The position numbers and the translations under genes were made by a program. A stretch of 50,389 bases of DNA from an uncultured Clostridium sp. GTDB lineage: Bacteria > Bacillota > Clostridia > TANB77 > CAG-508. Positions within the stretch are counted from its first letter, which is position 1. The number at the start of each line of letters is the position of its first letter. Under the pieces are notes generated by a model that was not told the origin of the DNA, made no database searches, and saw nothing but the letters and a program-made list of their open reading frames with translations. This document shows positions 6,104 to 25,790 of this stretch, in pieces. The stretch spans positions 1-50,389 of the forward strand of contig CAZWIF010000001.1 in assembly GCA_964634355.1 (NCBI GenBank), given 5' to 3'.

Positions 6104-6132
6104 TTGACAAAAATGGCTTTTTATGGTATAAT
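6104..6132 (+). promoter_or_regulatory. Consensus sigmaA-like promoter (-35 TTGACA, 17 nt, TGg-TATAAT)
   Basis: TTGACA at 6104-6109, TG at 6124-6125, TATAAT at 6127-6132. It lies 36 nt upstream of the TTG start at 6168. Confidence 0.7.
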
Positions 6133-6167: not shown

Positions 6168-6752
6168 TTGAAGACGATTTACTTAGATTTTGATAATACT
6201 ATAGTCGAAAGTAATAAAAGAATTATAGAGATGTTAAATGAGAAATATGGTACATCTAAAACGGAAGAAGATTTATGTGATTATAATTATAATTCTATCT
6301 ATCCTATAAGTGAATCTGAAAAGACAAAAATGTTTGAGAACGATGATTTTTATAATGGATTAGAGTTCAAATATGGTGTTTTAGATGTTTTAAATAAATA
6401 TAATAAATTTTATAACATAATTATATTGAGTATCGGGACAGAAGAAAATTTAAGAAAAAAGCAAGAGTGGCTTAAAAAGTTTCTGCCGGATTATCAGTTT
6501 ATTGGCATTGATGGACAAACAAGAAAGAAAAATAATATAAATATGGAAAATGCTATACAAATTGATGATAATTTTAGTTGCCTAAAGACAAATGCTGATT
6601 TAAAGATTCTATATAAGAGTTTTCATAACTTCCCGTGGCAAGAACCAACTTCTGATGAAGAGCTTATGATGGTCAACACTTGGGAAGAAATAGATTCAAT
6701 TTTGGATTTTTATAAAAAGTATAATTGCAAGACATTAGAAAAAATAAAGTAA
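6168..6752 (+). CDS. HAD-superfamily hydrolase, 5'(3')-deoxyribonucleotidase-like (194 aa)
   Basis: N-terminal IYLDFDNTIV is the DxDxT HAD motif I. Size and layout fit phage NT5C-like nucleotidases. TTG start with AGGAGG 7 nt upstream. Confidence 0.6.
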   Translation: MKTIYLDFDNTIVESNKRIIEMLNEKYGTSKTEEDLCDYNYNSIYPISESEKTKMFENDDFYNGLEFKYGVLDVLNKYNKFYNIIILSIGTEENLRKKQEWLKKFLPDYQFIGIDGQTRKKNNINMENAIQIDDNFSCLKTNADLKILYKSFHNFPWQEPTSDEELMMVNTWEEIDSILDFYKKYNCKTLEKIK

Positions 6753-6766: not shown

Positions 6767-9523
6767 TTGAAGGTTCTTCAGAATTTATATTATGTTTATA
6801 AAATACCATCGAATAAAATAAATAGTTTACAAACATACAGTTTCAAAGATGCTAAAAGAGATGGTTGCGTAGTATCTATAGGGGATAATTTAGTCTTTGC
6901 TAAAATAAGAGAATATTATGGAGAAACAGGAGACCATATATCTTTATATAACAAAGTACAAGATATAAGAAAAGAAATGAAAAGTATAAAGAAACAACCT
7001 ACTTGTCAAGAAAATATAGATAAATTAAAAGATTTACAGCATCAGTTAGATAAAATGCTTTTTATAGATGATATAGTTAATATAAAGGTTATTACTAAAA
7101 AAGAATATAAACAAATTGCTAGAAATGGATTTGATTTAAACGGTAAACATTATGTAAGATTTATGGTTGGCTCTGGTCAAATGAGAAGAAATACCGTAAG
7201 TTTTATTAATGAAAAATTATATGATTATATGCAAGAGCATTTGATGTGTGGGTTGGATAAAAAAATTAAAAATATAAATTTAGCAAAATTGAGTGCTTAT
7301 TTTGCATTATCATTTTCATCAGTTTTGTGGGTGAGGGAGCCAAAAGTATGTGTTATAAAAGATTTTGATACAGTGATACCGAATCAAAGGCTTGATTTTA
7401 TTTATAAAGATGAAGAAGAAAAAAATCAAGTTAAGGAAATATATAAAGATTTAAAACTTAATAGCTGTGATGGGCAAGGGATTATAAGCCCAGAAATGGC
7501 TCAAAATTGGTCTGAAGATATGCACTTGAATTATGTTCCTTGCTCATTTGTGGTTAGAACCGCATTTATAAAAGGAAATTTGGTCACGTTTGATTTTAAA
7601 GAATATGCAAAAGAAAACGGTATAACTAAAATTAAAGATAGATATGGAACGGAATATAATATTGAGGATATAGATGTATTATTATCAGAGTCACAGTTCA
7701 AAATGGCAAAATATTATTCTGCTTGGGAAGGGTATTTAAGTTATCACCACTCTTACCATTTAAAATGGGGAGTAGCAAGATATAACAAGGAATTTGATGA
7801 TGAATATGTTTTAACTAATTATCAATATATACAAGTTCTTGATTTAAATAGAGAAGATATAAAGGGATTAGTATCTTATACAACAGATTGGTTTAAAAAT
7901 ATTTGTAGCGGTGATAAATTATATTCTTTAGCTTATAATATAGGTATTAAAAATCCAGAGGATAACTTATCAGAGATTGTTAATTCTTGTGGTAGTACCT
8001 TTACTAAAGCTATAGTAAAGAACTCTAATATGTTAGAAGATGGATACATTCAAAGAAAAATATACAATTCTATAAAAGAATCTATTCGTCAAGCTAAATT
8101 AGGAAGGATATGGGTGAAAGGAAATTATCAATTTATGATAAGTGACCCTATTGCTCAAGTAAGAAATGCTTTAGGCTTATCACCAGATGGAGAGCTGCAA
8201 GCCAATGAGGTTTATTCAAACTTCTGGAATGAGAGAAATGTTTCTGGTGAAGTTTGTTTAATGAGGAGCCCATTAACTCACTATTCAGAAATAAATGTAG
8301 AGAGATTAGCAAAAACAAAAGAAATGGATAAATGGTATAAATATATTTATAGCGGTGTTATATATAGCATATATGATATTGCCACTGTCAAGCACGCAGA
8401 TTCAGATTTTGATGGAGATATAGTTTGCTCAACTAATAATAAATATTTTTTAAAGGGAGCTATGAGGAATGAAATTCCTATAACTTATGAAAAAGAAATG
8501 GTTCCTACTCAAAGAGTGACATTGCCTAATTTTATTAGATGTGATGTTAAAGGTTTGGATACTAAAGTTGGACAGATTACCAATTATTCTACGAGCATGA
8601 TAGCTATGCTTCCATTATTCAAAGGTGAAAGACAGCAAGAGCAATTACAAGAAATGCAAAAAAGAATTAAACTTCTTAGAGAAATACAGGGTGCCGAAAT
8701 AGATAAAATAAAAGGAACTACTCCACCTCAATTTCCAAAAGAATGGAGATATTGGGTAAAAATAGATAAAGATGATGATGATATAACTAAAGCAGAAAAG
8801 TATAAGTACAATTCAATGGTTGTTAAAAAGAAACCTTACTTTTTTATTTATCTATATTCTACTTTGATGAAAGAATATAGGGCGTATGAAAAAAATTTTA
8901 ATAGCATAAGCTATAAACACTTCGGAATGTCCATTAAAGATTTATTAAAAAAAGAAAATAGGTCTGAAGGAGAAAATAAGTTAATTAGAAAGTATAGAAA
9001 ATATTCTCCTGTATTAGAGACGGATTGTGTTATGAATAATTTATGTAAAGAAATAGAAAGTTCTGATTCTGACATTAAATTCCATCCAAGTAAGGTGAGT
9101 TTATTAAATGATTTTGCTGATTATTCAAATATTGATAATGAGAAATTAATTGATTTAATGGATATATGCAAGACATATAAATCTGAAAAGCAATTTAAAG
9201 GATTTTCAGCCATGATAGAAAATGAAGGAATTGCTGATAGTGACATTGTAGAAATTATGAATCAAGTTTTATATGGGCATAAAGATGAATATAGAGAAAA
9301 AGTTAAAAATCTATTTAGTAATACAAGAGAGTTATTTAATCACTTGATGATGATGTGTCAGATAAAGAAAATGAATCATGATATAGTTTGGGATATAATG
9401 GGGGATGACATAGTAGATATTATACCTGTTTGTAATCCTACTGTTTTGGTAGAAGATGATAATGGTGTTGAATATTTAGGACATAAATATCAATTACAGG
9501 AGGTTAATAATGTTAATATTTGA
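6767..9523 (+). CDS. YonO-like single-subunit two-barrel RNA polymerase (beta-prime / RdRP-like), 918 aa
   Basis: HADSDFDGD (nt 8399-8419) matches the NADFDGD / DxDGD metal-binding loop. About 45 aa upstream, LMRSPLTHYSEI (from nt 8261) matches the NRAPTLHRLGI-type DPBB strand. TTG start at 6767 with AGGAGG at 6752-6757; the track's ATG at 6725 lies inside the upstream gene. Confidence 0.7.
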   Translation: MKVLQNLYYVYKIPSNKINSLQTYSFKDAKRDGCVVSIGDNLVFAKIREYYGETGDHISLYNKVQDIRKEMKSIKKQPTCQENIDKLKDLQHQLDKMLFIDDIVNIKVITKKEYKQIARNGFDLNGKHYVRFMVGSGQMRRNTVSFINEKLYDYMQEHLMCGLDKKIKNINLAKLSAYFALSFSSVLWVREPKVCVIKDFDTVIPNQRLDFIYKDEEEKNQVKEIYKDLKLNSCDGQGIISPEMAQNWSEDMHLNYVPCSFVVRTAFIKGNLVTFDFKEYAKENGITKIKDRYGTEYNIEDIDVLLSESQFKMAKYYSAWEGYLSYHHSYHLKWGVARYNKEFDDEYVLTNYQYIQVLDLNREDIKGLVSYTTDWFKNICSGDKLYSLAYNIGIKNPEDNLSEIVNSCGSTFTKAIVKNSNMLEDGYIQRKIYNSIKESIRQAKLGRIWVKGNYQFMISDPIAQVRNALGLSPDGELQANEVYSNFWNERNVSGEVCLMRSPLTHYSEINVERLAKTKEMDKWYKYIYSGVIYSIYDIATVKHADSDFDGDIVCSTNNKYFLKGAMRNEIPITYEKEMVPTQRVTLPNFIRCDVKGLDTKVGQITNYSTSMIAMLPLFKGERQQEQLQEMQKRIKLLREIQGAEIDKIKGTTPPQFPKEWRYWVKIDKDDDDITKAEKYKYNSMVVKKKPYFFIYLYSTLMKEYRAYEKNFNSISYKHFGMSIKDLLKKENRSEGENKLIRKYRKYSPVLETDCVMNNLCKEIESSDSDIKFHPSKVSLLNDFADYSNIDNEKLIDLMDICKTYKSEKQFKGFSAMIENEGIADSDIVEIMNQVLYGHKDEYREKVKNLFSNTRELFNHLMMMCQIKKMNHDIVWDIMGDDIVDIIPVCNPTVLVEDDNGVEYLGHKYQLQEVNNVNI

Positions 9524-10295
9524 TGAAAGAAAATATGCAAAGAATCTTTTAAAAGAAAAAAAATTTAAAACATACAGACAAAAAGATATTGAAAGATATA
9601 TTTTAATTAGATATTTAGCTGATGAAGGAAAGAATTTTGAGGAGATAAGAAAAGAATTGGAGAAATTTCCTCTTATGGGCTGTGAATATTTAGATAAGAA
9701 GGATATTGATTTAATTTATAGTAAAATAGTTGATAGGGCTCTTAGTTGCCCTCTTGTAACGGGTATTGAAGTAAATATTTATAAATCTGAAATAGACATA
9801 ATTAATAATTTAGAAGATGAAAATTTAAAAAAATTATTATTTATATTATTGGTTTATTATAAGTGGGCTATAAATCAACCATATTTATATTTTTTTAGTA
9901 AACATAATAATGTTAAGATGGTTATTACTAATGATATAGATGTTTGGAAATATGCTGGTATTATGAAATTGAGAGTTGCAGAGAGATATAGATTATGTAA
10001 TAGATTAATAATAGATGGATTATATGTAGAGGACAATTTTAAGTCAAATAATTATTTTTATTTACCTTTTTCTGTTGATGAAGGGGAGATTGCTTTTACA
10101 ATAAAAAGTTATGACAATATAATAGGCGAATTGCAATTTTATAATGACAAAGAACATTATAAAAGATGTGCTGTTTGTGGAACAGTTATAAAAAAAACTC
10201 GTTCCCCTAAAAAATATTGTGCTAATTGTGCATACGATGAAAATATAAGAAAAACAAAGAAAAATAAAAAAAGTTTGAAAACCCAATCCTCATAA
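9510..10295 (+). CDS. Hypothetical protein with C-terminal zinc ribbon (CAVCG...CANC), 261 aa
   Basis: Overlaps the RNAP gene end by 14 nt. The C-terminus is basic. Confidence 0.5.
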   Translation: MLIFDERKYAKNLLKEKKFKTYRQKDIERYILIRYLADEGKNFEEIRKELEKFPLMGCEYLDKKDIDLIYSKIVDRALSCPLVTGIEVNIYKSEIDIINNLEDENLKKLLFILLVYYKWAINQPYLYFFSKHNNVKMVITNDIDVWKYAGIMKLRVAERYRLCNRLIIDGLYVEDNFKSNNYFYLPFSVDEGEIAFTIKSYDNIIGELQFYNDKEHYKRCAVCGTVIKKTRSPKKYCANCAYDENIRKTKKNKKSLKTQSS

Positions 10296-10389
10296 ACCGT
10301 TGAAAATAAAGGGAAAACAAACGTTCGTAAAAAATATTATATATAATGAGAAAGAAAAACAAGTTTTATATAATAAAAGGAGTTTGAAT

Positions 10390-11592
10390 ATGGAATTAGA
10401 AAGAAAAGAAGGAGAAACAGAGATACAATATTTATGGCGTATTGGTAAAATGGTTGATGCTGGGCAAGTAGGAAGTTGGAAAGATATAACTCCCATTTTA
10501 AATAAGCAACTTAGAGAAGATGACGAATATTATGATGAATCAGCATACCGAAAAAAATATCAAGCAGCTAAAAAATTCTATGATGAAATCTTTTCTCAAC
10601 AGGGAGATGAAGATTTTAAAAAGGAACAAGAAGAAATATTGAGAGAAATTAAAAAAGAAAAAATAAAGTTAAGAGATGAAAGAACAGAATCTAATAGAGG
10701 AATTAGGATAGAAGCTAGAGTCGAAGATAAACTTGATTATCTTGAAAAAATAATTGCAAATCAAGGCAAGATAGACTATAAGCCTCTTAAACCAGCTGAA
10801 CGAGAATTAATAAAAACAAAATCTGATAATGATTTAATTATTATGTTAAGTGATTTGCATATAGGACAAACTTTTGCTTCAGCTTGGGGAAGATATAATT
10901 TGGAAGTTGCAAAAGATAGGATGAATCAATATCTAAATAAAATAATTGAAATAAAAGATAGACATAACTCTGAAAATTGTTTTGTGACATTGCAGGGAGA
11001 TATGATTAGTAATTCTATCCATAAAACTATTGCAATAACCAATAGAGAAAATGTAATTGAACAAGTAATCTCTGCTAGTGAAATGATAACATCTTTTTTA
11101 GCAGAACTTAGTAAGATATTTAACAATGTTACGGTTGCAAGCGTTGTAGGAAATCATTCAAGAATAGACAAAAAAGAAGATGCTCTCAAAGATGAGAGAT
11201 TAGACACTTTAATTGAATGGCACGCACAAAGTAAATTAGAAAATTTTGAAAATATAAAATTTGTTGATGCTTTTGATAATACGTTTACATCCTTTGTTGT
11301 TAGAGATAAACATTATTTTGTTGTTCATGGAGATTATGATAAATTTGACACAACAGGAGTTGCTAAATTAAGTATGATGGCTGGATACTTTCCTTATTGT
11401 ATTTTATTTGGGCACAGACATTTTCCTGCGGCAACAGAAATTAATGGCATTAAATTAATTCAATCTGGAAGTTTCCCTGGTGCGGGAGATGACCACACTA
11501 TAGAATTAAGATTAAGTGGGAGACCATCTCAAACAGTATTAGTTTGTAATAAAGATGGAATAGAATGTAACTACACAGTGGAACTCGATTAG
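10390..11592 (+). CDS. Calcineurin-like metallophosphoesterase with N-terminal helical extension (400 aa)
   Basis: Ordered motifs LSDLHIG, GDMIS, GNHSR, VVHGD and GHRH. The ATG at 10390 is preceded by AAGGAG, so it is preferred over the track's alternative start at 10300. Confidence 0.7.
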   Translation: MELERKEGETEIQYLWRIGKMVDAGQVGSWKDITPILNKQLREDDEYYDESAYRKKYQAAKKFYDEIFSQQGDEDFKKEQEEILREIKKEKIKLRDERTESNRGIRIEARVEDKLDYLEKIIANQGKIDYKPLKPAERELIKTKSDNDLIIMLSDLHIGQTFASAWGRYNLEVAKDRMNQYLNKIIEIKDRHNSENCFVTLQGDMISNSIHKTIAITNRENVIEQVISASEMITSFLAELSKIFNNVTVASVVGNHSRIDKKEDALKDERLDTLIEWHAQSKLENFENIKFVDAFDNTFTSFVVRDKHYFVVHGDYDKFDTTGVAKLSMMAGYFPYCILFGHRHFPAATEINGIKLIQSGSFPGAGDDHTIELRLSGRPSQTVLVCNKDGIECNYTVELD

Positions 11593-11627
11593 GGTTCTTT
11601 TTTATTTTGAAAGAAAGGTGAAATTAG

Positions 11628-12455
11628 GTGGCTACAAAAAGTAAAAGAGTTACTACGAGTCAGCCAAAAGAGCCTAAAAAAATTTGTCAAAATCAATCTT
11701 GCGATGCTATGGGTAGATACCAAAATAAGAGTAATTTTTATAAGTCAAGAAATATATCAATAGGGTATCATCCTTATTGTAAAGAATGTGTTAATAAAAT
11801 AATAGATATTGACAATATGCAAACGGTTTATGATGTTTTGCAGACTTTAGACACGCCATTTATACAGGATGTCTGGAAAGAGGCTCTGGCGGATGTAGAT
11901 GGTAATTTTATAGATAGGTATTTAAATTTAATAAATAACACATATAAGACAAGATATGAAAATGCAAGATTTAAAGATAGCATTTATGATAGTGAAATGG
12001 TATTAGAAAAAGATGAAGATGGAAAAGAAATTAAAAACTGGGATGATACTTGGCAAGGGTATTATTCAAAAAGAGAATTAAATTATTTAAATAAATACTA
12101 TCAAGATTTAAATAATGACTTTAAAATAATAACGACTAATCATAAGGATTATGCTCGAAGAATTGCACAGGCTTCGTTAACAATGAATGATACTTACAAT
12201 ATAATGAGAGATAATCCAGATGATAAAGATGCAGTTAGTGCTTATAACACTGCTGTATCGAATTTTGATAGATTATCAAAATCAGCACAATTCGCTGAAA
12301 GCCAAAGAGGAGCAAACGATGTTTCCTTGGGCTGTTTCGGTAGGGTATTTGATGCTGTAGAAAAACATAATTTTGTTCCTCAACATATACCAGAAGATAA
12401 AGATATGTTTGATAAAATTATAGACCAATTTTCAAATATTGAGAAGAGTTTATAA
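11628..12455 (+). CDS. Putative terminase small subunit (Cys-rich N-terminus), 275 aa
   Basis: Lies immediately upstream of terL with a TAATG overlap. GTG start after GAAAGGTGA. The assignment is positional only. Confidence 0.4.
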   Translation: MATKSKRVTTSQPKEPKKICQNQSCDAMGRYQNKSNFYKSRNISIGYHPYCKECVNKIIDIDNMQTVYDVLQTLDTPFIQDVWKEALADVDGNFIDRYLNLINNTYKTRYENARFKDSIYDSEMVLEKDEDGKEIKNWDDTWQGYYSKRELNYLNKYYQDLNNDFKIITTNHKDYARRIAQASLTMNDTYNIMRDNPDDKDAVSAYNTAVSNFDRLSKSAQFAESQRGANDVSLGCFGRVFDAVEKHNFVPQHIPEDKDMFDKIIDQFSNIEKSL

Positions 12456-14574
12456 TGGCAGTTAACATAAAAAAAGTCAGAAGAGGTGTTGAAGCTCAAA
12501 AAACTTGGGGATATGATAATACGGATTCCCCATTGAGTTATGACCCTATTAATGAAGAAAAAATTGATTATGAAGAATGGACTAAATTTTTATCGTACTA
12601 TAGATATTATGTTGATGAATTTGCAGTCGATATTTTAGGAATGGATAATTTATTTCCATTTCAAAGATTATTATTAAGAGCAATGGGAAGATTCCCAAAC
12701 ATAATGTTTATTATGTGTAGAGGTAGACGTACTGTTATGCCCCTGATTTATGGTGACATAAATCTAAGCATCGGGCAAAATCGGTGAAGGCTAAAATTAT
12801 AATCGAGGAGATAAAATGAAATATATGACAAAGTAATATAGTAATAAAAGGTTATAATAATGTTAATACCGAGATAATTATCTAAATTAAAAAGTAGATA
12901 ATATTGTAACGCATAGAGATTGAAACTTTATAAAAAGAATATAATATCTCCACGAGTGTCCGACATCTTATACAAAGATGAAAATATATGCTAATCTGAA
13001 ATGGAATTGACCATTTAATGAAAATGAGGGAAACCTCCAGAGTGATAGATAAAAAGCTATCAGTTAAGAACATAATGTTAACCAAGTCTTATATTGCTGC
13101 AATATTCATTTGCTGTATGGCTATTTTATATCCAGGTATGGCGATAGGTATAGTATCTGGAAACGGTAATCAAGCAAGAATGGTTATTAAACAGAAAATA
13201 GAAGGAGAATTATGTAAGAACGAAAATATTAAAAGAGAAATTAAAAGTATAAAAACAGGTATGGACGATTGTGTCGTTACTTTTAAAAATGGAAGTTCTA
13301 TAAGAGCCTTTACATTAGGTAATAATCAAAAAGGTGATACCAGTAGAGGATTAAGATTTCAATTGATATTAGTTGATGAGGCGAGATTGGTTAAGACAGA
13401 AGTTTTAAAACAAGTTTTAGTACCAATGACAAAAACTCCAAGAACTAATGCGATAGATTTAAAAAAGAGATTCCCAGATGCACCTTATGAAGAAGGTCGT
13501 ATGGTTTATATTTCTTCTGCTTGGTTAAAAACTTGTGATTTATATCAAAGATTTTTAAATTTCTATAGTCAAATGATTGCGGGAGATAAAAATTATTTTG
13601 TTGCTAGTCTTGATTATAGAGTGGGTATAGATGCAGGATTATTTACAGAAGAAAATATGATGATAGAAAAAAATGACCCGGAAATGACTCTCGACAAGTG
13701 GGCTTACGAGTACGAAGGTCGATTTGTTGGTAGTGCAAATGATAGTTATTATCCTTATGATATAACTTCAAAATGTAGGTCATTAGATAGATGTGAATTA
13801 GAACAGCCTAAAAAATGTCAATATAGATATATAGTAACGCACGATGTAGCCGTATCTGGCAAATCAGGTTCGGATAATGCCTGTACTCATGTTATAAAAT
13901 TAATTCCTAGAAAAAATGGTACATTTACTAAACAAGTTGTTTTTACAAAGACAATGAATGGAGCAACATTAAAAGAGCAAAGAGATTTTTTAAGGGAACT
14001 TATTCATATTAGATTTCCTAATACAGATAAATTAGTAATAGATGCTCAATCTGCTGGGCAAGGTTTGTTATCTTTATTAGAAGAGCCTTGGACTGCGAGA
14101 AATAATAGGGGAGAAATAGAAGAATTTCCTCCGTTGATTTGTGACGATGATGAAGAAGCACAAATATTATTACCAGATGCAGAGCCCTTAATAAGAGGGA
14201 TAACTGCTACTCAAGAATTTAATAGCACTTTTTATCCATATATGAAAAGTGGATTTGAAGACAGGAGCTTACAATTATTAGTAGACAGCAGTGAAAAAGA
14301 TGAAGAATATAAGAGTGGAAAATATAGACCTGAAGAACAGTTAATTCATATTGAACACGATAGTTTAGTTCAAGAATTAAGTAACATAAAACAATCATAT
14401 TCTGAATATGGGAAGATAATTTATACTAGAATTGTTAAAAGTAAAAAGAGAGACCGTGTTACAAGTTTAATGTATGGTTTATCTGTTGTTTGGGAATATG
14501 AGAAACAAGGAAAAGCAGATATGTATAAAAAAGAGGTAGACCCTCTTTCATATTTAAAAAAATATATATATTAA
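12455..14574 (+). CDS. terL: Terminase large subunit, split gene: exon 1 12455-12724, exon 2 13078-14574 (588 aa after splicing)
   Basis: Exon 1 ends ...FIMCRG and exon 2 starts LTKSYIAAIF.... Joined, CRG|LTKSYIAAIF has the spacing of the T4 gp17 Walker A region SRQLGKTTVVAIF. Exon 2 carries Walker B LILVDEA and a nuclease-domain-like IVTHDVAVSG. Confidence 0.8.
12725..13077 (+). mobile_element. ORF-less intervening sequence in terL, probable group I intron (353 nt)
   Basis: The 5' exon ends in U (GGT at 12722-12724) and the insert ends in G (13077). Candidate P1 is AGAGGU / GCCCCU (12739-12744) with a terminal U.G pair. Candidate P7 is GGAGAT (about 12806) / ATCTCC (about 12945), the latter preceded by the J8/7-like AAGAATATAAT. 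Stops occur in all frames. Confidence 0.65.
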
Positions 14575-14594
14575 AGGAAGGTAGGTGAATAAGA

Positions 14595-16274
14595 TTGAGT
14601 AATAAAAAAGTTAAATCTGATGCAGAAATTAATTTAACAGAAAAGCAAGTTATAGAGGTTTTACAAGCGTATGATAAAGCTTTAGATATTAGAGACCGTC
14701 AAATTGCTAATGGAACTTTTGATGTAGAGGCATTTTCAAGGGGCATGAATGAGGTTGGTGCATTTACACCATATACGCAAAATGAAATAATGAAAAGAAT
14801 CAATATTGCTACAAATAATACACCAGATGGAAAAAAAATAGATAGTGCATTATCTAACCCGATTGAAAATGAAAATAATCTAGTTAATTATGGTCAATCT
14901 TATTATTTTAGTAGTTTAATGTATAAACGAAATCAAGAATATCTAGCAAACCTACCTGCGTTTGATTTAGAAATGTCTTGTGTAAACGCAAAACCAGAGG
15001 ACTACAAAACAAATAAATATAAAAATGATTATGAAGAAATTAAAAAATTTCTTAATTCATTTAATTATAGAGAACAATTTAAAAATGTTACTTGGAGCAT
15101 AGTAATGAATGAAACTTATTATGCAATGTTTAGAGAGTTGGGAGATAAATCTGTTATCCAAGAATTTCCAGCTTCATATTCTATGATTACTGGAAAATGG
15201 GAATATGGTTTATTATATGATATAGATATGAATTGGTTTCTTCAAGGTGAAGTAGACATTAATTGTTATCCTGATTGGATAATTAAAAAATATAAAGAAA
15301 TGTTTGATGGCAAAAAAGAAAAGCCATATATACCAAGTAATAAGATAAATAAAAGAACTGGCACTTTTGGACTATGGACTCAAACAGACCCAGCCAATGG
15401 ATGTTGGGTTTTTAAATTTAATCCAAATCATAGTTTACAAGTTCCATTTTTTTCTGGGTTATTACCAGAAATGGCTATACTTCCAACATTAAGAAATTTG
15501 CAAGTTAATCAAAGTATGGCAGCCGCAAGAAAACTATTGGTTTCATCAATTCCATATTTAAATGAAAAGAAAGCAGCTAGTGTTGCAAATCAGTTAGCAA
15601 TAGATGCAGATACCTTAGGTAAATTTATTGGACTTGCAACCAAAGGATTAGAAGCTGCAATTAAAGTTTTGGCTTTACCAACCGAAGATATTAAAGGTAT
15701 TGAATTTACAAATACCGATAGTGATACTTATGAAACATTTATGACTTTAACAAGCTCTTTATTGAGTGGTGGTAAAGTAATATTTTCAACAAGTGAGAAT
15801 CAAAATGCAATAGAGACTCAATTTTCTATTGATATAGATAGAATGTTAATTAAATCTATTTATCCTCAATTTGAAAATTTCTTAGAATATTATGCTAATA
15901 AGCACACTAAGAAGTTTAAATGGAAATTTAAATTTGTTGGAACTAATGATAAGTTTGATAGAGAAGCTAGACAAGAAGAGGCATTTAAGTATGCCGATAA
16001 AGGTGTTGTTCTTCCAAACAAAATTGCTTCATCTTTAGGAATGAACAAAATAGAGCTAGAAAGAGAATTGGAAGAAATGAACGCTAGTGATTTTATTGAA
16101 AAATTAAGACCTATGATTAATATTTATACTCAAGGTAATGTTACTGAAGGTGCAAAAACAAATTCAGATAATAACAACACTGGTAGACCAAAGTCTAAAG
16201 ACGAGGACTTAACAAATAGTGGTAGCGAAACTAGAGACAAAGGGTCAAATATAGAAAAAGGTGGAAATTTATAA
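14595..16274 (+). CDS. Portal protein (559 aa)
   Basis: Size and position directly after terL. TTG start after GGAAGGTAGGTGA. Confidence 0.6.
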   Translation: MSNKKVKSDAEINLTEKQVIEVLQAYDKALDIRDRQIANGTFDVEAFSRGMNEVGAFTPYTQNEIMKRINIATNNTPDGKKIDSALSNPIENENNLVNYGQSYYFSSLMYKRNQEYLANLPAFDLEMSCVNAKPEDYKTNKYKNDYEEIKKFLNSFNYREQFKNVTWSIVMNETYYAMFRELGDKSVIQEFPASYSMITGKWEYGLLYDIDMNWFLQGEVDINCYPDWIIKKYKEMFDGKKEKPYIPSNKINKRTGTFGLWTQTDPANGCWVFKFNPNHSLQVPFFSGLLPEMAILPTLRNLQVNQSMAAARKLLVSSIPYLNEKKAASVANQLAIDADTLGKFIGLATKGLEAAIKVLALPTEDIKGIEFTNTDSDTYETFMTLTSSLLSGGKVIFSTSENQNAIETQFSIDIDRMLIKSIYPQFENFLEYYANKHTKKFKWKFKFVGTNDKFDREARQEEAFKYADKGVVLPNKIASSLGMNKIELERELEEMNASDFIEKLRPMINIYTQGNVTEGAKTNSDNNNTGRPKSKDEDLTNSGSETRDKGSNIEKGGNL

Positions 16275-16287
16275 AGGAGGATTGTGT

Positions 16288-16500
16288 ATGTTCGTAGTAA
16301 ATTCAAAAAATATTAATTTTTCAAACATATATATATGTGGAGAACAAATAGGCAATTTCCTAGTAGAAGAAGGGTTTCCACTATTAGGAAGAGAAGGCAA
16401 AAAGATGAAATTTGCCAAAACAGAAAGATTAGAAAAGGTTTTACTTCATTTACCTGCCAAACTTAAATTATTAAGAAAGGTGGGATTAATAGATGGATAA
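16288..16500 (+). CDS. Small hypothetical protein (70 aa)
   Basis: The ATG at 16288 lies 7 nt after AAGGAGG. Confidence 0.45.
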   Translation: MFVVNSKNINFSNIYICGEQIGNFLVEEGFPLLGREGKKMKFAKTERLEKVLLHLPAKLKLLRKVGLIDG

Positions 16501-17800
16501 ATTTTTATTGGATATTGAAAATTTTGAAATATTACCTGAAGAATATTCAGATGAACAATTAGCAACGGTAGAGATTTATGTCTGCCACGATGGTAATAAT
16601 AGACATGGTATTCCTATATCAAGAGAGGCACTAGTTAATGCTAAAGATACTTTAAAAAACAAGTTCTTGGTTGCGGGATTTGATGGGAATGATTTTGAAG
16701 GTCATGAACCAGATGAGATGATAGTGGGTTTCTTTCCAGAAAGTTCAAAAATGAAATTTGAAAAGAGAAAAGGAAGAACTTATTTAGTTGCTCAAGCCAT
16801 AATGTCTAAAGTTTATGCTAAGTGGGCGTATGATATTTTTAAAGAAAAAGGAAACCAAAGAGATGTTTCGATGGAAATAACTGTTCTAAGAGGACAAGTT
16901 GATGAAAACGATAACTTATTAACCATAGATGAATTTGTATTTAATGGTGTTACCATTTTAGGACTAAACCACGTACCTGCCTGTGAAGGCAGCAGTGCAT
17001 CTATAATCAAATTTGACTGTGAAAATGCACTAAAAGTTTATAATGAACACTGTGATAATACTACTATGGTGGAATTTTCAGGAAAGGAGGAGACAGGTAC
17101 AATGGAAAAAACTAAAAAAATAGTCGATGAAGTTGAAGTTGAAGCTGAAACTAAAGAGGACGAAAAAGTTGAAGATGAAACTAAAACTAAAGAAGACGAT
17201 GAAACTATGTATTCTGAAGATGATAAATCAGAGGATAAAGATGATGATTCAGAAGATTCAGAAGAAGAAGATGAATCTAAGGAAGATGTAGAAGAAAAAG
17301 TAGATAACGAAGCTAAATCTGATGAAGTTGAGAACGTTGAAAAAGAATGTAAGAATGAATCAGATGTAGAAGATGTTGAAAAAGAATGCAAAAATGAAAG
17401 TGACGAAAATCTTCCTACTGAAAATTGTGAAACTGATGAACCTGAGGAAGAAGAAAATTCTGAGACTGTCAAGGCAGAAAGAGATTCTTTAAAGAAAGAA
17501 TGTGAGGTTCTAAGAGACAAAGTTGCAAAATATGAAGCTAAAGAAAAATCATTAAAAGTAGAAAGTATCATTTCTAGTGTAGTTGATTTATTTAGTGCAG
17601 ATGAAATTTCAGAGTTAAGAGAAGAGTCTAAGAAATATTCATTAGATGAATTACATATCTTCGATAATGAAGTAAAAGCTAGAGCTTTTGATAAAGTTAA
17701 ATCAAAAGATAAAAAAATCGAAGATAAGAATTTTACAAAAATGGCTGTTAACGATGTTTTAGATAAACAAGAAAGTACATCTAAATATACGTGGAAATAA
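16493..17800 (+). CDS. XkdF-like prohead protease/scaffold fusion with an acidic repeat region and a C-terminal coiled coil (435 aa)
   Basis: Lies between portal and capsid. The N-terminal CHDGNNRHGIPISREAL resembles the XkdF-type domain. The acidic linker is followed by a K/E-rich helical tail. Confidence 0.45.
   Translation: MDKFLLDIENFEILPEEYSDEQLATVEIYVCHDGNNRHGIPISREALVNAKDTLKNKFLVAGFDGNDFEGHEPDEMIVGFFPESSKMKFEKRKGRTYLVAQAIMSKVYAKWAYDIFKEKGNQRDVSMEITVLRGQVDENDNLLTIDEFVFNGVTILGLNHVPACEGSSASIIKFDCENALKVYNEHCDNTTMVEFSGKEETGTMEKTKKIVDEVEVEAETKEDEKVEDETKTKEDDETMYSEDDKSEDKDDDSEDSEEEDESKEDVEEKVDNEAKSDEVENVEKECKNESDVEDVEKECKNESDENLPTENCETDEPEEEENSETVKAERDSLKKECEVLRDKVAKYEAKEKSLKVESIISSVVDLFSADEISELREESKKYSLDELHIFDNEVKARAFDKVKSKDKKIEDKNFTKMAVNDVLDKQESTSKYTWK
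17327..17404 (+). repeat. Two tandem 39-nt units encoding VE(N/D)VEKECKNESD
   Basis: Direct reading gives GTTGAGAACGTTGAAAAAGAATGTAAGAATGAATCAGAT, then GTAGAAGATGTTGAAAAAGAATGCAAAAATGAAAGTGAC. Confidence 0.8.
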
Positions 17801-17827
17801 TTAAAATATTAGAAGGAGGAAATTCAA

Positions 17828-18355
17828 ATGAACGAAAAAATAGTATTAATACCAAGTTTAGTAGCTGCTAAAAATGTTGATTCATACAATGCAAGTTTTA
17901 TTGCTGAAACAGACATTGATAATGGTATGGTTTTCGCTGCTGGAGATTATAGCGACGAACAAGTTTATAGTGTAGCTGCTATTGGTGAAGACTTACACAA
18001 TATCTATATGGCATTTAGTCCAGAAGATACAATTATCACAGATGCTATGGGAAATGAATATAAAATTGGTATCAATGACCCAAGAACATTTACAAACGTA
18101 GCTGGAAAGGTTTTCAGTGCTTACAGACCACAAGTTGGAGATAAAATTTTAATTTCAGCTGCTGGTATCGATGGAGATGCTGCTGATTATGCAGTTGTTG
18201 CTGCTGGAACAAACAAATTGCAATATGCTAGTGCTGCTGTTGAAGGATTATCTTACAAGGTATTAAATGACAGTGATTACATTTCAATCGGTGGAGCAAC
18301 TAACATTGGTTCACAAAGAGTTGAAGCAGTATTATTAGAATGCGTTGCTATCTAA
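17828..18355 (+). CDS. Putative head decoration or auxiliary capsid protein (175 aa)
   Basis: Strong RBS GGAGGA. Codon usage looks highly expressed. Gly/Ala-rich and not helical. Lies directly upstream of the capsid gene. Confidence 0.35.
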   Translation: MNEKIVLIPSLVAAKNVDSYNASFIAETDIDNGMVFAAGDYSDEQVYSVAAIGEDLHNIYMAFSPEDTIITDAMGNEYKIGINDPRTFTNVAGKVFSAYRPQVGDKILISAAGIDGDAADYAVVAAGTNKLQYASAAVEGLSYKVLNDSDYISIGGATNIGSQRVEAVLLECVAI

Positions 18356-18411
18356 TAAAGAAAATAAAAAAACAATTTATAAAATAAGAATATTAGAAGG
18401 AGGAATATAAA

Positions 18412-19503
18412 ATGAGATTACCAAATAGTGTTTTAGCATTCACAGCAAATGATGAAGATAGAAAGAACGCTTATTCAAAATTTGTTGAATATTATGAATC
18501 ATATATAAATGGTAAAAAGAGTAGTGCTGCTGGTACTACATTTGAAGAAATGAATAGTAAAATGTTAGAATTCTATACAGATGAAATCGAAAGAATGTCA
18601 GGAAGAAAAGTCAGTGATTATAATGATTTAGCTCAATTCTGCAACTTCTCTGATGTTAAAGAATCTGCATTTGCTATTATTGGTATGATTACTGATTTAA
18701 TTATACCTGATGCTTTAATCAAAGACTTAGGAGTTATTGCAGAAGTTAAAAATGGTTCTTGGGGAGACACTTTAAAAGTTGAAATTGAACCAAGAGATTT
18801 ATTTATTGTTGCTAAAGGTGGAAGAGCAAGAAGAGATTTTGATATAACTAGACAATTTAAGGGAGAAAAAACTGTAGTTCCTGAAGTACACGCAATTTCT
18901 GTAGGTATTTCTTTATATGATGTTTTAAGAGGAGCTTATACATTAGCTGAATTTGTAAGAAAAGCTGTTATGTCTATTGAAACTCAAATGAGATATGATA
19001 TTTATGACGCTTTTGCTGCTATGATGGACAATCTACCAACTGCTGGTTCAGCTGCATTAAAATTAACTGGATGGAATCAAGATTCTGCTATAGCATTAGC
19101 TCAAAAAGTTAGTGCTTGGAACGGTGGAAGACAAGCTATCTTCTTAGGAACTAAATTGGCATTATCAAAAATCTTACCTGCATCTACAAATACTAGAATC
19201 TTATTAGGAGATGAATACGTTAAAGTTGGTTACTTAAGAGATTTCTTCGGAATTTCTTGTGTAGAATTAGAACAAGTTGCTGATTACAAAACTGAATTTG
19301 CAGTTAAATTAGACGACACTAAAATCTATGTTTTATGCCCAGGTACTGATAAATTAGTTAAAGTATTCGTTGAAGGTTCTACATTAGCAAATAATGAAAC
19401 TAACTTCTATAATGCAAACTTACAACAAGTTGCTACATTATATAAATCTTATGGTGTTGGTGCATTTACTTCAGCTTTAGCTGGTGAAATTGCTCTATCT
19501 TAA
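18412..19503 (+). CDS. Major capsid protein (363 aa)
   Basis: Position, size and strong RBS GAAGGAGG, followed by the strongest terminator in the window. Confidence 0.6.
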   Translation: MRLPNSVLAFTANDEDRKNAYSKFVEYYESYINGKKSSAAGTTFEEMNSKMLEFYTDEIERMSGRKVSDYNDLAQFCNFSDVKESAFAIIGMITDLIIPDALIKDLGVIAEVKNGSWGDTLKVEIEPRDLFIVAKGGRARRDFDITRQFKGEKTVVPEVHAISVGISLYDVLRGAYTLAEFVRKAVMSIETQMRYDIYDAFAAMMDNLPTAGSAALKLTGWNQDSAIALAQKVSAWNGGRQAIFLGTKLALSKILPASTNTRILLGDEYVKVGYLRDFFGISCVELEQVADYKTEFAVKLDDTKIYVLCPGTDKLVKVFVEGSTLANNETNFYNANLQQVATLYKSYGVGAFTSALAGEIALS

Positions 19504-19530
19504 TTTGATTTATATTAACAGATATATATT

Positions 19531-19568
19531 GAGGGGTAATGAAATTAATTTCATCCCCTCTTATTTTT
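19531..19568 (+). terminator. Rho-independent terminator after the capsid gene
   Basis: GAGGGGTAATGAAAT-TA-ATTTCATCCCCTC, about 13 bp with one bulge, followed by TTATTTTT. Confidence 0.75.
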
Positions 19569-19591
19569 AGTAAAAAAGGAGAGATAATATT

Positions 19592-20260
19592 ATGACTACT
19601 ACTACAAAAAAGAATAGTACAGTTAAAAAAGAGGAAACAAGTAAAGATGAATACACAATGAATTTAGAAAATCGTATTTCTGAATTAGAGGAATTAATTA
19701 AAGGTATGGCTACTGATACTAAAACAGCTAGCGAGCCAACAGTAAATAACATCACTCAATATATCGGAGATAATAATAAAGATGTGGTTTTGACGTCGTT
19801 AACAGTTGGTCAATTAAATTTATCAACCGAAGGGTATGGGCAAGGTGTTGTTTACACATTTGAAGAAATAGGAGAACAACAGTCTATCCCTTATGATGAC
19901 GTAAAAAAAATCATAAAGAATAATAAAGCTTTTATTGAGGGAGGAAATGTATTCATTAATGACGATGAAGTAATTAAAAGTCAAAGATTAGAAAACATTT
20001 ATAAGAAACTATTAAGTTATGATGGAATGTTTGATTTATTAAATAAAGATAGAAAAGCATTCAAAAAAGTTTTTAGTGGTATGACTAAAAATCAAAAAGA
20101 AAATTTAAAAGGAATTATATTTGATAAATTAACAAAAGATTCATCTAGTGTCGATATGAATATCGTTCAAGTTATGAATGAGGATATGAATATAGACATT
20201 ATGAATGAAGTTAAAAATGCAAAAGATTTAATGGATTATATGAAAAGTGACAAGAACTAG
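19592..20260 (+). CDS. Hypothetical head-associated protein (222 aa)
   Basis: RBS AAGGAGAG. Located in the late operon. Confidence 0.5.
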   Translation: MTTTTKKNSTVKKEETSKDEYTMNLENRISELEELIKGMATDTKTASEPTVNNITQYIGDNNKDVVLTSLTVGQLNLSTEGYGQGVVYTFEEIGEQQSIPYDDVKKIIKNNKAFIEGGNVFINDDEVIKSQRLENIYKKLLSYDGMFDLLNKDRKAFKKVFSGMTKNQKENLKGIIFDKLTKDSSSVDMNIVQVMNEDMNIDIMNEVKNAKDLMDYMKSDKN

Positions 20261-20271
20261 GAGGGGTATAT

Positions 20272-20793
20272 ATGGAAGATGAAGTATTAACTCCAACAGA
20301 AGAAACTGATGAAGAAAATACTGCAGAAAATGAAGAAATAATAGAAACTACTTCATACGATGATATAATTGACCTCGCTTTAGTATCCATTGAGGATTAT
20401 CACTTGAATAGATTGGCGGTGGCTTCACCAAAAGATTTCAATATAGTTTTAGAAGGTTTTATGATTAGAGGATTGGCGAATTTTGAAAATTGTAGACAGG
20501 ATTTATCTGATAGAGACAATTCAGCTAGAGTATTTAATTGTGTTTTAACTGACATAGAAAAAAGTATTATAGCTGATTATACTGTTATAGCTTGGCTTGA
20601 TAAAGAAATAAATGATGTTAGACAAATTACTGGTATGATGCAAAATAATAAAGAAGCACATAGATATTCAGAAGCCAATAACCTTAACGCAAAAATAAAT
20701 AGAAGAAACCAATTAATTGAAGAGGTTGCTACTAAAAAAACTACTTATAGTTTTAGCAAATCTAATTGGTTAAATAAGTGGGCATTAGATTAA
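20272..20793 (+). CDS. Putative head-tail connector/adaptor (173 aa)
   Basis: Positional assignment only. RBS GGAGGGG. Confidence 0.4.
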   Translation: MEDEVLTPTEETDEENTAENEEIIETTSYDDIIDLALVSIEDYHLNRLAVASPKDFNIVLEGFMIRGLANFENCRQDLSDRDNSARVFNCVLTDIEKSIIADYTVIAWLDKEINDVRQITGMMQNNKEAHRYSEANNLNAKINRRNQLIEEVATKKTTYSFSKSNWLNKWALD

Positions 20794-20794
20794 A

Positions 20795-21160
20795 ATGAAA
20801 TATGATTTTAATTTAGATGATAAAACTACACTAGATTCTTTAACTATATTAATAAATCAATGTTGGAAAACATTACCTATTTTTGAAGGAAAAAATAAAA
20901 ATAGTGAAATCGCATATTCCCGTGATGAGGCTTATAAAAATTATCAAAAACATCTTACTTTTTTAAGCACCAAATTAATAGGTGCAAGTGAATTATGGAA
21001 AGATAATCAATATTATGTGGAATTACTTTATATGATAGAAGGAATGAAAAGTTTTAGTCCTGAGGAGCATGATAGAGTTAAATATATAGTAAACCATTGT
21101 ACCAATCTTATCAATAATATGAAAGATGAGGTTATGAAAGATGGCACTCAAGTATTATAA
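20795..21160 (+). CDS. Hypothetical head-tail joining protein (121 aa)
   Basis: Positional assignment only. Confidence 0.4.
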   Translation: MKYDFNLDDKTTLDSLTILINQCWKTLPIFEGKNKNSEIAYSRDEAYKNYQKHLTFLSTKLIGASELWKDNQYYVELLYMIEGMKSFSPEEHDRVKYIVNHCTNLINNMKDEVMKDGTQVL

Positions 21161-22430
21161 TGCAACTCAATCTACTAGGATAACAAACCCTACACAAGCT
21201 TATTATAATGATTTTGTTGCAATAAGTGACCAAACGTTTGATAATGCTCCAAATGTTAAATATAATGAGATTCAATATGAAGTTCATTATGGGAAAAGGG
21301 ATTTTAAACCAATTCCAATGGTTAGGGTTGAGCCTATTGTTAATTATAATACAGGCATTCAAGTAGGAGATGATTATCAAACATTTATTTTTACCCCAGA
21401 TTTCCCAGAACCATATTATGGTATGAAATTTAAATGGGGAAGAAATTATTATTTAGTTGTAAATGTTGATAGCGGTTCTGGATTGTCTACTAGTGCAGAA
21501 GTAAGAAGATGTAATAATACATTAAGGTTTTTTGATGATAATGGGAATAGGATATATGAACCTTGCATTTTAGACCAAACGTTAAGATTCACAAATAATA
21601 ATGATACTATGACGATTGTTACTGGTAAAGGTGAACAATATGTATGGTGCCAACGCAATAGCAGGACTGTTAAAATAAAACCTAATGATAGATTTTTATT
21701 TGGTGTTCCAGAACAAAGAATTGGATTTAGATTATATGTTGGTGGTTTAGGAAACTCTCTTAATACGATAACGGGAGATGACCATTCTCCAACTCTAACT
21801 CAATTTTATATGGAAGAATATGAAATAAATTATCAAGAAGATGACATAGAAAATGGTTTTGCTAGCGTGGAGAGATATGAATATAGTATTGATATAAGTG
21901 AAAATAACACTTATTATGATATTGGTGCTACAGCTACTTTAAATGCTGTTATTTATAGAGGAAAAGAAGTGGTAGATAAAAATGTTATTTGGGCTTCTTC
22001 CGATGAAGATATTATTTCTATTAATGATGGGGTCTTGACTGCTTTATCTGCAGGTGAGGTTACATTATATGCTACTATGGAAGATAATAAAAATATTTAT
22101 GGTTCTATAAATATTACGGTTTTAGATTCAGAATCAGAGGAAGATATATATAATATATTAATTACTCCAGATATAAATTATGTTTTAGAAGGAGAGACTA
22201 TTTCTATAACTGCTAACTTATATAAAAATGGTATTAAGCAAGACGATATATTGACTATTGTAGATGTTAGTGAGAATGTCCCTAGACAAAATTATAGGTT
22301 GACTATTGATAATAATACATTTACAATTGAAAATAAGCAAAAATTCTTAAAAAATAAAGTGAAAGTACAATGCTCATATAATAATGAACTATATGAAACA
22401 TTTGAATTCACATTGAGGGGGTTATATTAA
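21141..22430 (+). CDS. Structural protein with two C-terminal Big_2-like Ig domains (429 aa)
   Basis: ATLNAVIYRGKEVVDKNVIWASSDEDIISINDGVLTALSAGEVTLYATMEDNKNIYGSINITV is a typical Big_2 pattern. A second, similar module follows. Confidence 0.55.
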   Translation: MALKYYNATQSTRITNPTQAYYNDFVAISDQTFDNAPNVKYNEIQYEVHYGKRDFKPIPMVRVEPIVNYNTGIQVGDDYQTFIFTPDFPEPYYGMKFKWGRNYYLVVNVDSGSGLSTSAEVRRCNNTLRFFDDNGNRIYEPCILDQTLRFTNNNDTMTIVTGKGEQYVWCQRNSRTVKIKPNDRFLFGVPEQRIGFRLYVGGLGNSLNTITGDDHSPTLTQFYMEEYEINYQEDDIENGFASVERYEYSIDISENNTYYDIGATATLNAVIYRGKEVVDKNVIWASSDEDIISINDGVLTALSAGEVTLYATMEDNKNIYGSINITVLDSESEEDIYNILITPDINYVLEGETISITANLYKNGIKQDDILTIVDVSENVPRQNYRLTIDNNTFTIENKQKFLKNKVKVQCSYNNELYETFEFTLRGLY

Positions 22431-22987
22431 TGGTTGATATGAAAGCTGTTAAAAATGCTTATGCAACATATAATGTAATGCCAGAAATAAGTTATAAAAT
22501 TATAGAACATTTGATGACAAATCCAAAAGCTGAAATTATATGGAAATTATTGAAATATAATGATGCTGATGCTTGGAATAAAGATAATCTTACAAAAGCC
22601 GAAAAGGCATCTATGATATATGATGGAGTTGGAGCACAAGATGACTTCAATGTATTTCTTGATTATTTTATGGATGAATCTACTAATAAAGAAAAAAGCT
22701 TTTTAAGAATTTATCCTGCTCAAGTATTTCCTACTACTAGAACATATGGAATTGTTTGTGTTAATATAGAAGTATTTATACATTCTCAAATAAATCATTT
22801 ATCAAATTATACCACTAGATTAGATACTATAATTCAAAAATTATTAGAAGTATTAAATGGCTGTGACGTAAATGGAGTTGGAGTCTTATACTTTGATGCT
22901 AGCGTTACTACATATAATCGTATTATAACTACTGGTGAAAAACCATATAAAGGTAAAGTAATTACTATGGGGGTTAATTTGTCATAA
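22430..22987 (+). CDS. Hypothetical neck/tail-completion protein (185 aa)
   Basis: Positional assignment. ATG overlaps the upstream stop. Confidence 0.4.
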   Translation: MVDMKAVKNAYATYNVMPEISYKIIEHLMTNPKAEIIWKLLKYNDADAWNKDNLTKAEKASMIYDGVGAQDDFNVFLDYFMDESTNKEKSFLRIYPAQVFPTTRTYGIVCVNIEVFIHSQINHLSNYTTRLDTIIQKLLEVLNGCDVNGVGVLYFDASVTTYNRIITTGEKPYKGKVITMGVNLS

Positions 22988-23754
22988 TGAATAATATAAA
23001 AGAATATGACTTTTATTTATTTTATGATAAACCTATACCTTATAAAGATTTATTAATTTATCCTGTTACTATGGATAAATATTTGGATTTTCATTTTTAT
23101 ATTAATTGTTTATTATTAGATAAAAATAGCATTCCAAATCCAGAAGTTATATCAATGACATATTTACAATTTTTGTATTATATGGCTAGTACGACTGAGT
23201 TACCATATTTGTATATGTTTAAGGAACTGTTAAAAATGGTTTTGCATATAGATGATGATAGCTCTTTTTGGTTTGGAACAGATTCAAATGGTAAAGCTAT
23301 CTTTAAAATAAATGAAATCATTTACAATTCTGATGATTGTGATAAAATAACTGATATTATTTTTATGCAAAATAGTATAGAACATATAGATGAAACTATT
23401 CAAAAAGAAGTAAGAGACGCAATGGATAAAGCAAAGGTCTATAAAATGAAACAAAACGCATATAAGATGTGTTCTTTAGAAGACCAAATGATATGCGTCT
23501 TAATATCAACACCTTTAAAAATGCAAGATATTTATGACTTAACTATTAGAAAGTTTAGTAAAATATTGGAACGTGTTGACCATAAATTGCATTATGAAAT
23601 TTATTTAAGTGCAGAAATGTCTGGTATGGTTAAGTTTAAAAACGAAAATCAAATCCAACATTGGATGGCAGATTTAACAAAATCAGATAATTATGAAGAT
23701 GTTAAAGTTGATGCCGATGAAATGCACCATAAAATAGATGATATAAATAAATAA
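22987..23754 (+). CDS. Hypothetical structural protein (255 aa)
   Basis: Positional assignment. TAATG overlap with the upstream gene. Confidence 0.4.
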   Translation: MNNIKEYDFYLFYDKPIPYKDLLIYPVTMDKYLDFHFYINCLLLDKNSIPNPEVISMTYLQFLYYMASTTELPYLYMFKELLKMVLHIDDDSSFWFGTDSNGKAIFKINEIIYNSDDCDKITDIIFMQNSIEHIDETIQKEVRDAMDKAKVYKMKQNAYKMCSLEDQMICVLISTPLKMQDIYDLTIRKFSKILERVDHKLHYEIYLSAEMSGMVKFKNENQIQHWMADLTKSDNYEDVKVDADEMHHKIDDINK

Positions 23755-23777
23755 AATAAATGAAGGAGGATAAAAAT

Positions 23778-24818: not shown

Positions 24819-25004
24819 TTTTAGTTTATGGCTAAAACAAATTGTCAATATAGTCAATATAAAAAAACAGGTCTTGAGCAGAGTTTAACCTGCTCTTTGA
24901 CCGGTAAATATTGCACTAAGCAAAGGTATTGTCCTACTCAACGTAGGCTAGTTAATACTGGAGATTGGCAGACTTGTACTCAGTTAAAAAAGGAGGAACT
25001 ACAA

Positions 25005-25283: not shown

Positions 25284-25312
25284 AGGAACGTACCCTTTCT
25301 TTTTTTTATTTT
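25282..25312 (+). terminator. Weak hairpin plus a long T-run
   Basis: AAAGG (25282-25286) / CCTTT (25294-25298), followed by CTTTTTTTTATTTTT. Confidence 0.4.
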
Positions 25313-25783: not shown

Positions 25784-25790
25784 ATGAATA

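Follow-up and report, generated by a model that had tools for sequence, protein, structure and literature searches.

The DNA analysed here, called the window in the following, is a stretch of 50,389 nucleotides (nt) from an uncultured Clostridium sp. (assembly GCA_964634355.1, contig CAZWIF010000001.1, positions 1 to 50,389) and represents gut phage DNA with a G+C content of 29%. It encodes a long-form RNA polymerase (RNAP) of the YonO family and, directly downstream of it, a zinc-ribbon protein, called the partner (Table 1). We consider it likely that the polymerase is made by the RNAP of the host, that it transcribes the late gene block that follows it, and that the zinc-ribbon protein is, most likely, its detachable subunit. 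The work that established the YonO-type family and its role dates from 2003-2017, and the gene alone is a routine assignment. The new point is the consistent fission and fusion of the zinc-ribbon module among the family members, which bears on initiation by YonO-type enzymes.

The polymerase gene is most plausibly translated from a TTG start codon, which is located 8 nt downstream of a strong Shine-Dalgarno sequence (AAGGAGG) and 14 nt past the stop codon of the upstream gene. The original prediction had described a 918-aa open reading frame (ORF) with the motif HADSDFDGD and a second motif 45 residues upstream, and all of these were recovered at the positions given for them. The translation of 8258-8419 is LMRSPLTHYSEINVERLAKTKEMDKWYKYIYSGVIYSIYDIATVKHADSDFDGD, which contains LMRSPLTHYSEI and, 45 residues further on, HADSDFDGD (L498 to H543). 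The second active-site segment, that of the beta-like barrel, lines up with IRYGGYKG of RDR2 in a profile search. Together, the two segments contribute D235, R264, K269, R500, P502, D547, D549, and D551, which are invariant columns in an alignment of 36 polymerases from three clades (alignment A1, 23-95% identity). Ruprich-Robert and Thuriaux defined eight residues that are invariant across two-barrel polymerases, and the equivalents in QDE-1 are D709, R738, K743, R962, P964, D1007, D1009, and D1011 (PMC2919709). The spacings of 29, 5, and 2 residues are the same in both proteins, and the distance from the arginine to the aspartate is 47 residues in the window RNAP versus 45 in QDE-1. By homology, D547, D549, and D551 would form the Mg-binding triad of the beta-prime-like barrel and, together with D235, would hold the two catalytic Mg ions, while R264 and K269 of the beta-like barrel together with R500 and P502 would position the nucleoside triphosphate and the RNA 3' end. 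YonO is a strictly DNA-dependent RNAP of high processivity, for which the Asp triad is essential; its mutation to Asn abolished RNA extension (PMC5467207).

The gene is interrupted in many relatives, and it might be argued that it is a decaying or non-functional remnant. However, the copy in the window is intact and uninterrupted, all catalytic residues are conserved, and the ratio of non-synonymous to synonymous substitution rates (dN/dS) versus the relatives is 0.04-0.07, and thus the gene is under strong purifying selection. In addition, the interruptions in the relatives are located precisely in the DxDGD codons and are often accompanied by homing-endonuclease ORFs, which is the signature of self-splicing introns. 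A remnant is therefore extremely improbable.

Several searches agree on the family. The Pfam family RdRP (PF05183) covers residues 103-655 (E=2e-21, 76.8 bits versus a cut-off of 23.8), the PHROGs family phrog_8308, which has no assigned function, matched with E=5e-97, and a tblastn search of 50,697 phage genomes yielded matches in 43 phage records, with yonO of phage SPbeta among them. A pairwise BLASTP alignment with YonO (E=7e-36, 28% identity over 517 aa) pairs ILRSPHL with LMRSPL and QFDNDGD with DSDFDGD. A plain sequence search of the PDB with the window RNAP found nothing and a profile search yielded marginal matches to RDR2 (E=0.009), and therefore a structural comparison was needed. 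The AlphaFold2 model, which was generated from the 36-sequence alignment, had a mean predicted local distance difference test score (pLDDT) of 88.3 and a predicted template modelling score (pTM) of 0.85. The best structural matches in the PDB were the RDR2 proteins of maize and Arabidopsis (Foldseek, E=9e-19) and QDE-1 (E ~1e-15), both aligned over about 880-940 columns with a probability of 1.00 and template modelling (TM) scores of ~0.45-0.49. They were followed by the RNAPs of the Thermus phages P74-26 and P23-45 (~1e-7) and by gp66 of the crAss-like phage phi14:2 (E=2e-4), while the cellular beta-prime subunit gave E values of 0.03 or worse and TM scores below 0.1. The Pfam domains RNA_pol_Rpb1 and RNA_pol_Rpb2 were not found in the window RNAP, and a T7-type RNA_pol was matched neither in Pfam, NCBIfam, and PDB sequences nor by structure. 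The original prediction of a YonO-like two-barrel RNAP that is not T7-like was thus borne out by the YonO alignment, the Pfam family, the eight invariant residues, and a confident model, and it also held in the Foldseek comparison.

In the model, both double-psi beta-barrels are predicted to lie in one polypeptide. Judged by sequence and model, the protein is a clear case of the YonO and eukaryotic-RdRP-like branch of the two-barrel polymerases and not a new kind of enzyme. Its second-barrel basic residues and its RxP...DxDGD motif are also found in the beta and beta-prime subunits of multisubunit RNAPs, but these enzymes carry the barrels on two separate subunits, and past the barrel motifs it would be of no use to call the window RNAP a homologue of beta-prime. 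The two-barrel core can also be detected by structure in gp64 of the Thermus phage P23-45, gp62 of P74-26, and gp66 of phi14:2. However, the Thermus phage and crAss-like enzymes have no detectable sequence similarity to the window RNAP and differ from it in size, genomic context, and timing, and the crAss-like enzyme is packaged into the virion. QDE-1 and RDR2 have the same eight invariant residues and are the best structural matches, but their identity to the window RNAP is only 10-14%, their N- and C-terminal domains are different, and they function in eukaryotic silencing, where they use RNA or single-stranded DNA.

The high ranking of eukaryotic RdRPs in the structural and Pfam comparisons raises the question of whether the enzyme might have another job, i.e., RNA-templated synthesis or a QDE-1-like RNA synthesis on single-stranded DNA, for example for replication priming or for a non-coding RNA (ncRNA). 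Relatives are named "RNA dependent RNA polymerase" in several sources, and the neighbouring genes for an NT5C-like protein and a YonJ-like exonuclease point to nucleotide and DNA metabolism. However, the name is probably misleading for the window gene; it has been inherited from the Pfam family and does not come from an experiment. YonO strongly prefers DNA templates and is needed specifically for late mRNAs (PMC5467207), and the gene in the window heads the structural module exactly like yonO. Taken together, such another job seems very unlikely, and transcription of the downstream late block is the reading that is followed here.

The partner gene, which has a GGAGG of its own, overlaps the stop codon of the polymerase gene by 14 nt and is probably translationally coupled to it. 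The protein ends with a CxxC-13-CxxC zinc ribbon, CAVCGTVIKKTRSPKKYCANC, and a tail rich in Lys. The dN/dS of the partner is 0.10-0.27, and its homology to the protein just downstream of the long-form polymerase of Bacillus phage BUCT082 extends along the entire length (E=4e-10); profiles detected homologues also in the Clostridium botulinum phage c-st (CST177) and others. A tblastn search of the phage genomes with the partner gave no match, because it evolves too fast, and profiles of neighbouring genes worked instead.

To put this gene pair on a broader basis, one genome per species was scanned with the polymerase alignment, which yielded 78 distinct loci, 77 of them with a complete 3' end, and a partner profile was built from 43 downstream proteins. 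By this profile, the polymerase lacks a ribbon and has an adjacent partner in 57 of the 77 loci, the ribbon is fused to the polymerase, as in YonO, and a partner is absent in 10 loci, and not a single locus has both the fused ribbon and the partner. The polymerase and partner genes overlap by 1-14 nt in most loci, which suggests coupled translation. Isolated phages fall into both groups, with a separate partner in c-st, PMBT24, MT835481, and BUCT082 and a fused ribbon in Perkons; the Thomasclavelia phage TR-TP1 has a 209-aa downstream ORF without a match to the partner profile and was left unclassed. The whole partner profile matches the extreme C-terminus of short-form YonOs, e.g., with E=3e-7 for SPbeta YonO, and a profile of the ribbon and the basic tail matches YonO residues 797-835 with E=4e-8. 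Comparison of the two families with hhalign gave a probability of 96.5% and E=9.5e-10, of which the ribbon part alone is trustworthy. A homology between partner and YonO over about 200 residues, which hhalign had also proposed, was dropped, because a partner profile without the ribbon misses YonO and because the respective stretch of YonO aligns instead to the C-terminus of the long-form polymerase itself.

The window RNAP and SPbeta YonO have the RSP...DxDGD and the first-barrel R...KG motifs in common, but YonO is shorter (839 aa versus 918 aa) and carries the ribbon and the basic tail on its own C-terminus, whereas the ribbon of the window is found on a separate protein of 261 aa with about 210 additional N-terminal residues. 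A CxxC pair was not found at the C-terminus of the window RNAP. Without a fused ribbon, it falls outside of the short-form YonO sensu stricto. That the overlapping zinc-ribbon gene encodes an accessory factor had been part of the original prediction, and the pattern of the 77 loci supports this assignment. The term "single-subunit" is therefore probably inexact for the long form. Most likely, the zinc-ribbon protein is a detachable second subunit, and its ribbon and basic tail would be the equivalent of the fused C-terminal tail of YonO. It would probably be in contact with nucleic acid, either while the promoter or the template is handled or as the RNA exits. The 2005 record of c-st labels CST177 "YonO-homolog (C-ter only)", and the relationship of the ribbon has thus already been noticed in annotation. 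A paper that discusses the split-off ribbon as the counterpart of the YonO C-terminus was not found.

How is the polymerase itself expressed? Just one site in the window matches the sigmaA consensus in all 12 positions, and it is located about 35 nt upstream of an operon of the nucleotidase, polymerase, and partner genes. Both hexamers are kept in four relatives (L003, L005, L007, and L009 of our set of loci), while the spacer has diverged. Based on this conserved consensus promoter, it is probably the host RNAP that makes the phage enzyme, and the host sigmaA RNAP would transcribe all three genes on one transcript. The nucleotidase gene is found in the same place in the relatives L003 and L083. 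The original prediction had also stated that the late region has few recognizable sigmaA promoters, and this part could not be upheld. The numbers of sigmaA-like sites found versus expected were 123 versus 122, 156 versus 123, and 64 versus 56, i.e., at or above chance, and such counts are uninformative in AT-rich DNA. The informative signal is that a single sigmaA promoter, perfect in sequence and conserved, precedes the polymerase operon. Back to back with it, a divergent near-consensus sigmaA promoter (TTGACA-17-TAAAAT with a TG extension) is located at 6095-6067 on the minus strand. It drives minus strand genes (5340-6050 region), including that for a YonV_C-like protein at 4138-5364, and its TTGACA box is kept in relatives.

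All genes from 6168 to 50115 are located on the plus strand, and terminator-like sites on this strand were not found at 20-40 kb. The late block, the presumed template, contains genes for a YonJ-like exonuclease, a YonG-like protein, the terminase large subunit, portal, head, and tail proteins, the tape measure, and tail fibres, and in a 95% identical relative the Pfam families YonJ_N, YonG_N, Terminase_6N, and YonD_N were found. The gene order in the 95% relatives is YonV_C, small ORF, NT5C, RdRP, partner, YonJ_N, YonG_N, terminase, portal, YonD_N, and the SPbeta order yonV..yonO..yonJ, yonG, yonF, yonE is the same around the RNAP. In both cases, the polymerase gene heads the yonJ-yonG-terminase-portal late module, and the genome sizes are also similar (134 kb for SPbeta versus contigs of about 130 kb for the relatives). 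YonO is required for the expression of 37 late SPbeta genes, which form one operon with a start site upstream of yonK (PMC5467207). By analogy to SPbeta YonO (PMC5467207) and by synteny, the window enzyme would take over the transcription of the packaging, head, and tail block of about 40 kb right after it, and late transcription would be independent of the host RNAP. A gene for a RuvC-like Holliday-junction resolvase (phrog_159, E=6.5e-17) is located at 25960-26499 amid the tail genes of the late block.

The candidate promoter site for the phage enzyme is the short leader before the first gene of the late module. It holds an AT-rich block, AAAAATATTATATAT-ATGAGAAAGAAAAACAAGTTTT, which is kept across relatives with polymerases of 73-95% identity, and its position matches that of the SPbeta P_YonO region upstream of yonK and yonJ. 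The latter was placed by published primers into an interval of about 190 nt. The P_YonO regions of BUCT082 and SPbeta are ~97% identical, although their polymerases are only 25% identical and differ in architecture, and BUCT082 has the long form and the partner upstream of its P_YonO region. This suggests that the long form with its partner and the fused form are functionally interchangeable.

The P_YonO/leader region of BUCT082 and SPbeta contains two copies of TCATTTATGARGGT that are 157 nt apart (L001 7456-7800, L002 11856-12200), and the similarity between the two phages begins abruptly at L002 ~11856. The region with its TCATTTATGARGGT pair is a possible lead to the YonO promoter. The repeated TCATTTATGARGGT is not present in the window.

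Several points weigh against the proposed roles of the polymerase and its partner. YonO is the only characterized bacterial or phage member, and the long-form members are known from their genes alone. Between the polymerase gene and the late genes, SPbeta has an HU gene, yonK, and a 1.7-kb leader that includes an ncRNA, but none of these is present in the window. The leader of the window has nothing in common with the P_YonO sequence, and a second copy above chance was not found in the window; with just one late operon, as in SPbeta, a repeated motif would not be expected. With respect to the partner, the part shared with YonO comprises only about 40 residues, zinc ribbons are common modules, and the profile without the ribbon gave no match to YonO. 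Searches of Pfam, NCBIfam, and PDB profiles with the partner were insignificant past generic zinc ribbons and weak hints to MerR, a fold could not be recognized for its N-terminal 210 aa, and a single-sequence AlphaFold2 model was unusable (pLDDT 42.6). Lastly, neither a ribbon nor a partner was detected by the profile in 10 of the 77 loci. Four of these (L071, L078, L079, and L081) carry a diverged form of CxxC..CxxC at the polymerase C-terminus, in three (L023, L025, and L026) a partner-like ORF is found on the other strand at a distance of about 2 kb, L014 and L016 are truncated or have Ns in their sequence, and L069 alone is unexplained.

Some of these points would fit to a polymerase that acts alone, with the zinc-ribbon protein being an independent DNA-binding regulator or a packaging-related neighbour. 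The rest of the partner beyond ribbon and tail is without a counterpart in YonO, YonO by itself is processive in vitro and its elongation complexes are stable (PMC5467207), weak hints to a MerR-type helix-turn-helix were found in 2 of 34 partners, and the partner-like ORF is displaced in three loci. However, the strict complementarity of the separate and the fused architecture and the overlaps of the two genes argue against independent proteins, and so does the adjacency, which is kept in Bacillaceae, Clostridia, and gut phages, across polymerases sharing only about 30% identity. A polymerase that acts alone is therefore rather unlikely, and the assignment of the zinc-ribbon protein as a detachable subunit is preferred. 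It is tempting to go one step further and to speculate that the long-form YonO-like polymerases are obligate two-subunit enzymes with the partner as a dissociable initiation or promoter-specificity factor, similar to sigma or TFB, and that YonO has this module as a fused part of its polymerase chain. This further step is put forward only tentatively. If true, the RdRP-like branch of the two-barrel polymerases would thereby have its first factor of this kind, and the question raised in 2017 of whether YonO finds promoters alone or with a factor would be settled.

Table 1. Features of the polymerase locus and of the late block in the window.
Feature	Position	Strand	Basis or remark
Consensus sigmaA-type promoter (TTGACA-17-TATAAT, TG extension)	6104..6132	+	Sole 12/12 match in the window
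NT5C-like 5'-deoxynucleotidase, first operon gene	6168..6752	+	Pfam NT5C E=5e-7, phrog_2643
918-aa long-form YonO-family two-barrel RNAP (start TTG at 6767)	6767..9523	+	ORF list, Pfam, phrog_8308, YonO BLASTP, AlphaFold2, Foldseek, dN/dS
Beta-like barrel active-site segment, D235...R264...K269-G270 (DGQG...VVRTAFIKG)	7469..7576	+	Translation, invariant columns, QDE-1 spacing
Beta-prime-like barrel active-site segment, LMRSPL (R500, P502) and HADSDFDGD	8258..8419	+	Translation, invariant columns, YonO alignment
261-aa partner: N-terminal helical region, C-terminal zinc ribbon and Lys-rich tail (10167-10295)	9510..10295	+	Homology, synteny, profiles
Short intergenic leader before the first late-module gene, candidate phage-RNAP promoter site	10296..10390	+	Conserved block, position
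Co-directional late block, presumed template	10391..50115	+	PHROG matches; Pfam in 95% relative

The closest described systems with the same gene pair are BUCT082 and c-st (CST179/178 and CST177). Their polymerases align with the window RNAP over the full length with 27-30% identity, and both phages have two genes with a homologous zinc-ribbon partner directly downstream. However, the identity is low, the annotation of the proteins reads hypothetical or "YonO-homolog (N-ter only / C-ter only)", and in c-st an insertion of 368 nt divides the polymerase gene at the catalytic motif.

The family is large; at 50% identity, 1,661 clusters match at E values up to 1e-3 and 413 at E values up to 1e-30. 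A protein identical to the window RNAP was not found in the database records, and a megablast search of the phage genomes gave no match to positions 1-25000 of the window. Polymerases with 73-95% identity are encoded on many gut-metagenome contigs of about 130 kb. While the host of SPbeta is Bacillus, binning has placed the contigs related to the window with various uncultured Bacilli and Clostridia of the gut, and not with Bacillus. YonO-type transcription is thus probably not peculiar to SPbeta of Bacillus; samples from human and ruminant guts contain abundant phages of about 130 kb that would have it as well. Most family members keep the zinc-ribbon module apart from the catalytic chain, and this split offers a testable handle on how minimal relatives of the cellular RNAP find their promoters.

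The polymerase gene of many relatives is interrupted inside of the DxDGD codons ("...DSD | ...DGDIV") in L023, L026, L049, L053, L056, L064, L080, L084 (c-st), and L088. The insertions have lengths of 190-1,010 nt, and several of them encode GIY-YIG-like or HNH-like endonucleases. Many representatives of the 50% clusters as well as the top match in BFVD stop at this insertion point. A search of the split polymerase genes with Rfam revealed no group I intron.

The window itself also contains insertions. The gene for the terminase large subunit (12455-14574) is split into two ORFs by an insertion of 353 nt (12725-13077), which is absent from the 95% identical relative L003, where an intact gene for 588 aa is found. 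The length of the insert is not a multiple of three, the upstream exon ends with T and the insert with G, as is typical for group I introns, and its RNA fold has a z-score of -3.4. An Rfam family was not found for it even at E of 10 or better, and the insert is probably a small self-splicing intron that contains no ORF and belongs to a type not yet modelled. Rfam also detected no RNA family elsewhere in the window, and tRNAs were not found. Furthermore, the tape-measure region (27599-37723) is broken by three ORFs for HNH endonucleases (28768-29901, 30972-32027, and 35737-36669; phrog_559, E=1e-52 to 3e-73), which are flanked on both sides by tape-measure-like pieces, and this suggests several intron or endonuclease insertions within one late gene. 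Among the related loci, L049 contains a HEARO RNA near the polymerase module (12388-12588, 119.6 bits), and L023 contains a twister-sister ribozyme and a group I intron (19004-19085 and 2762-3109).

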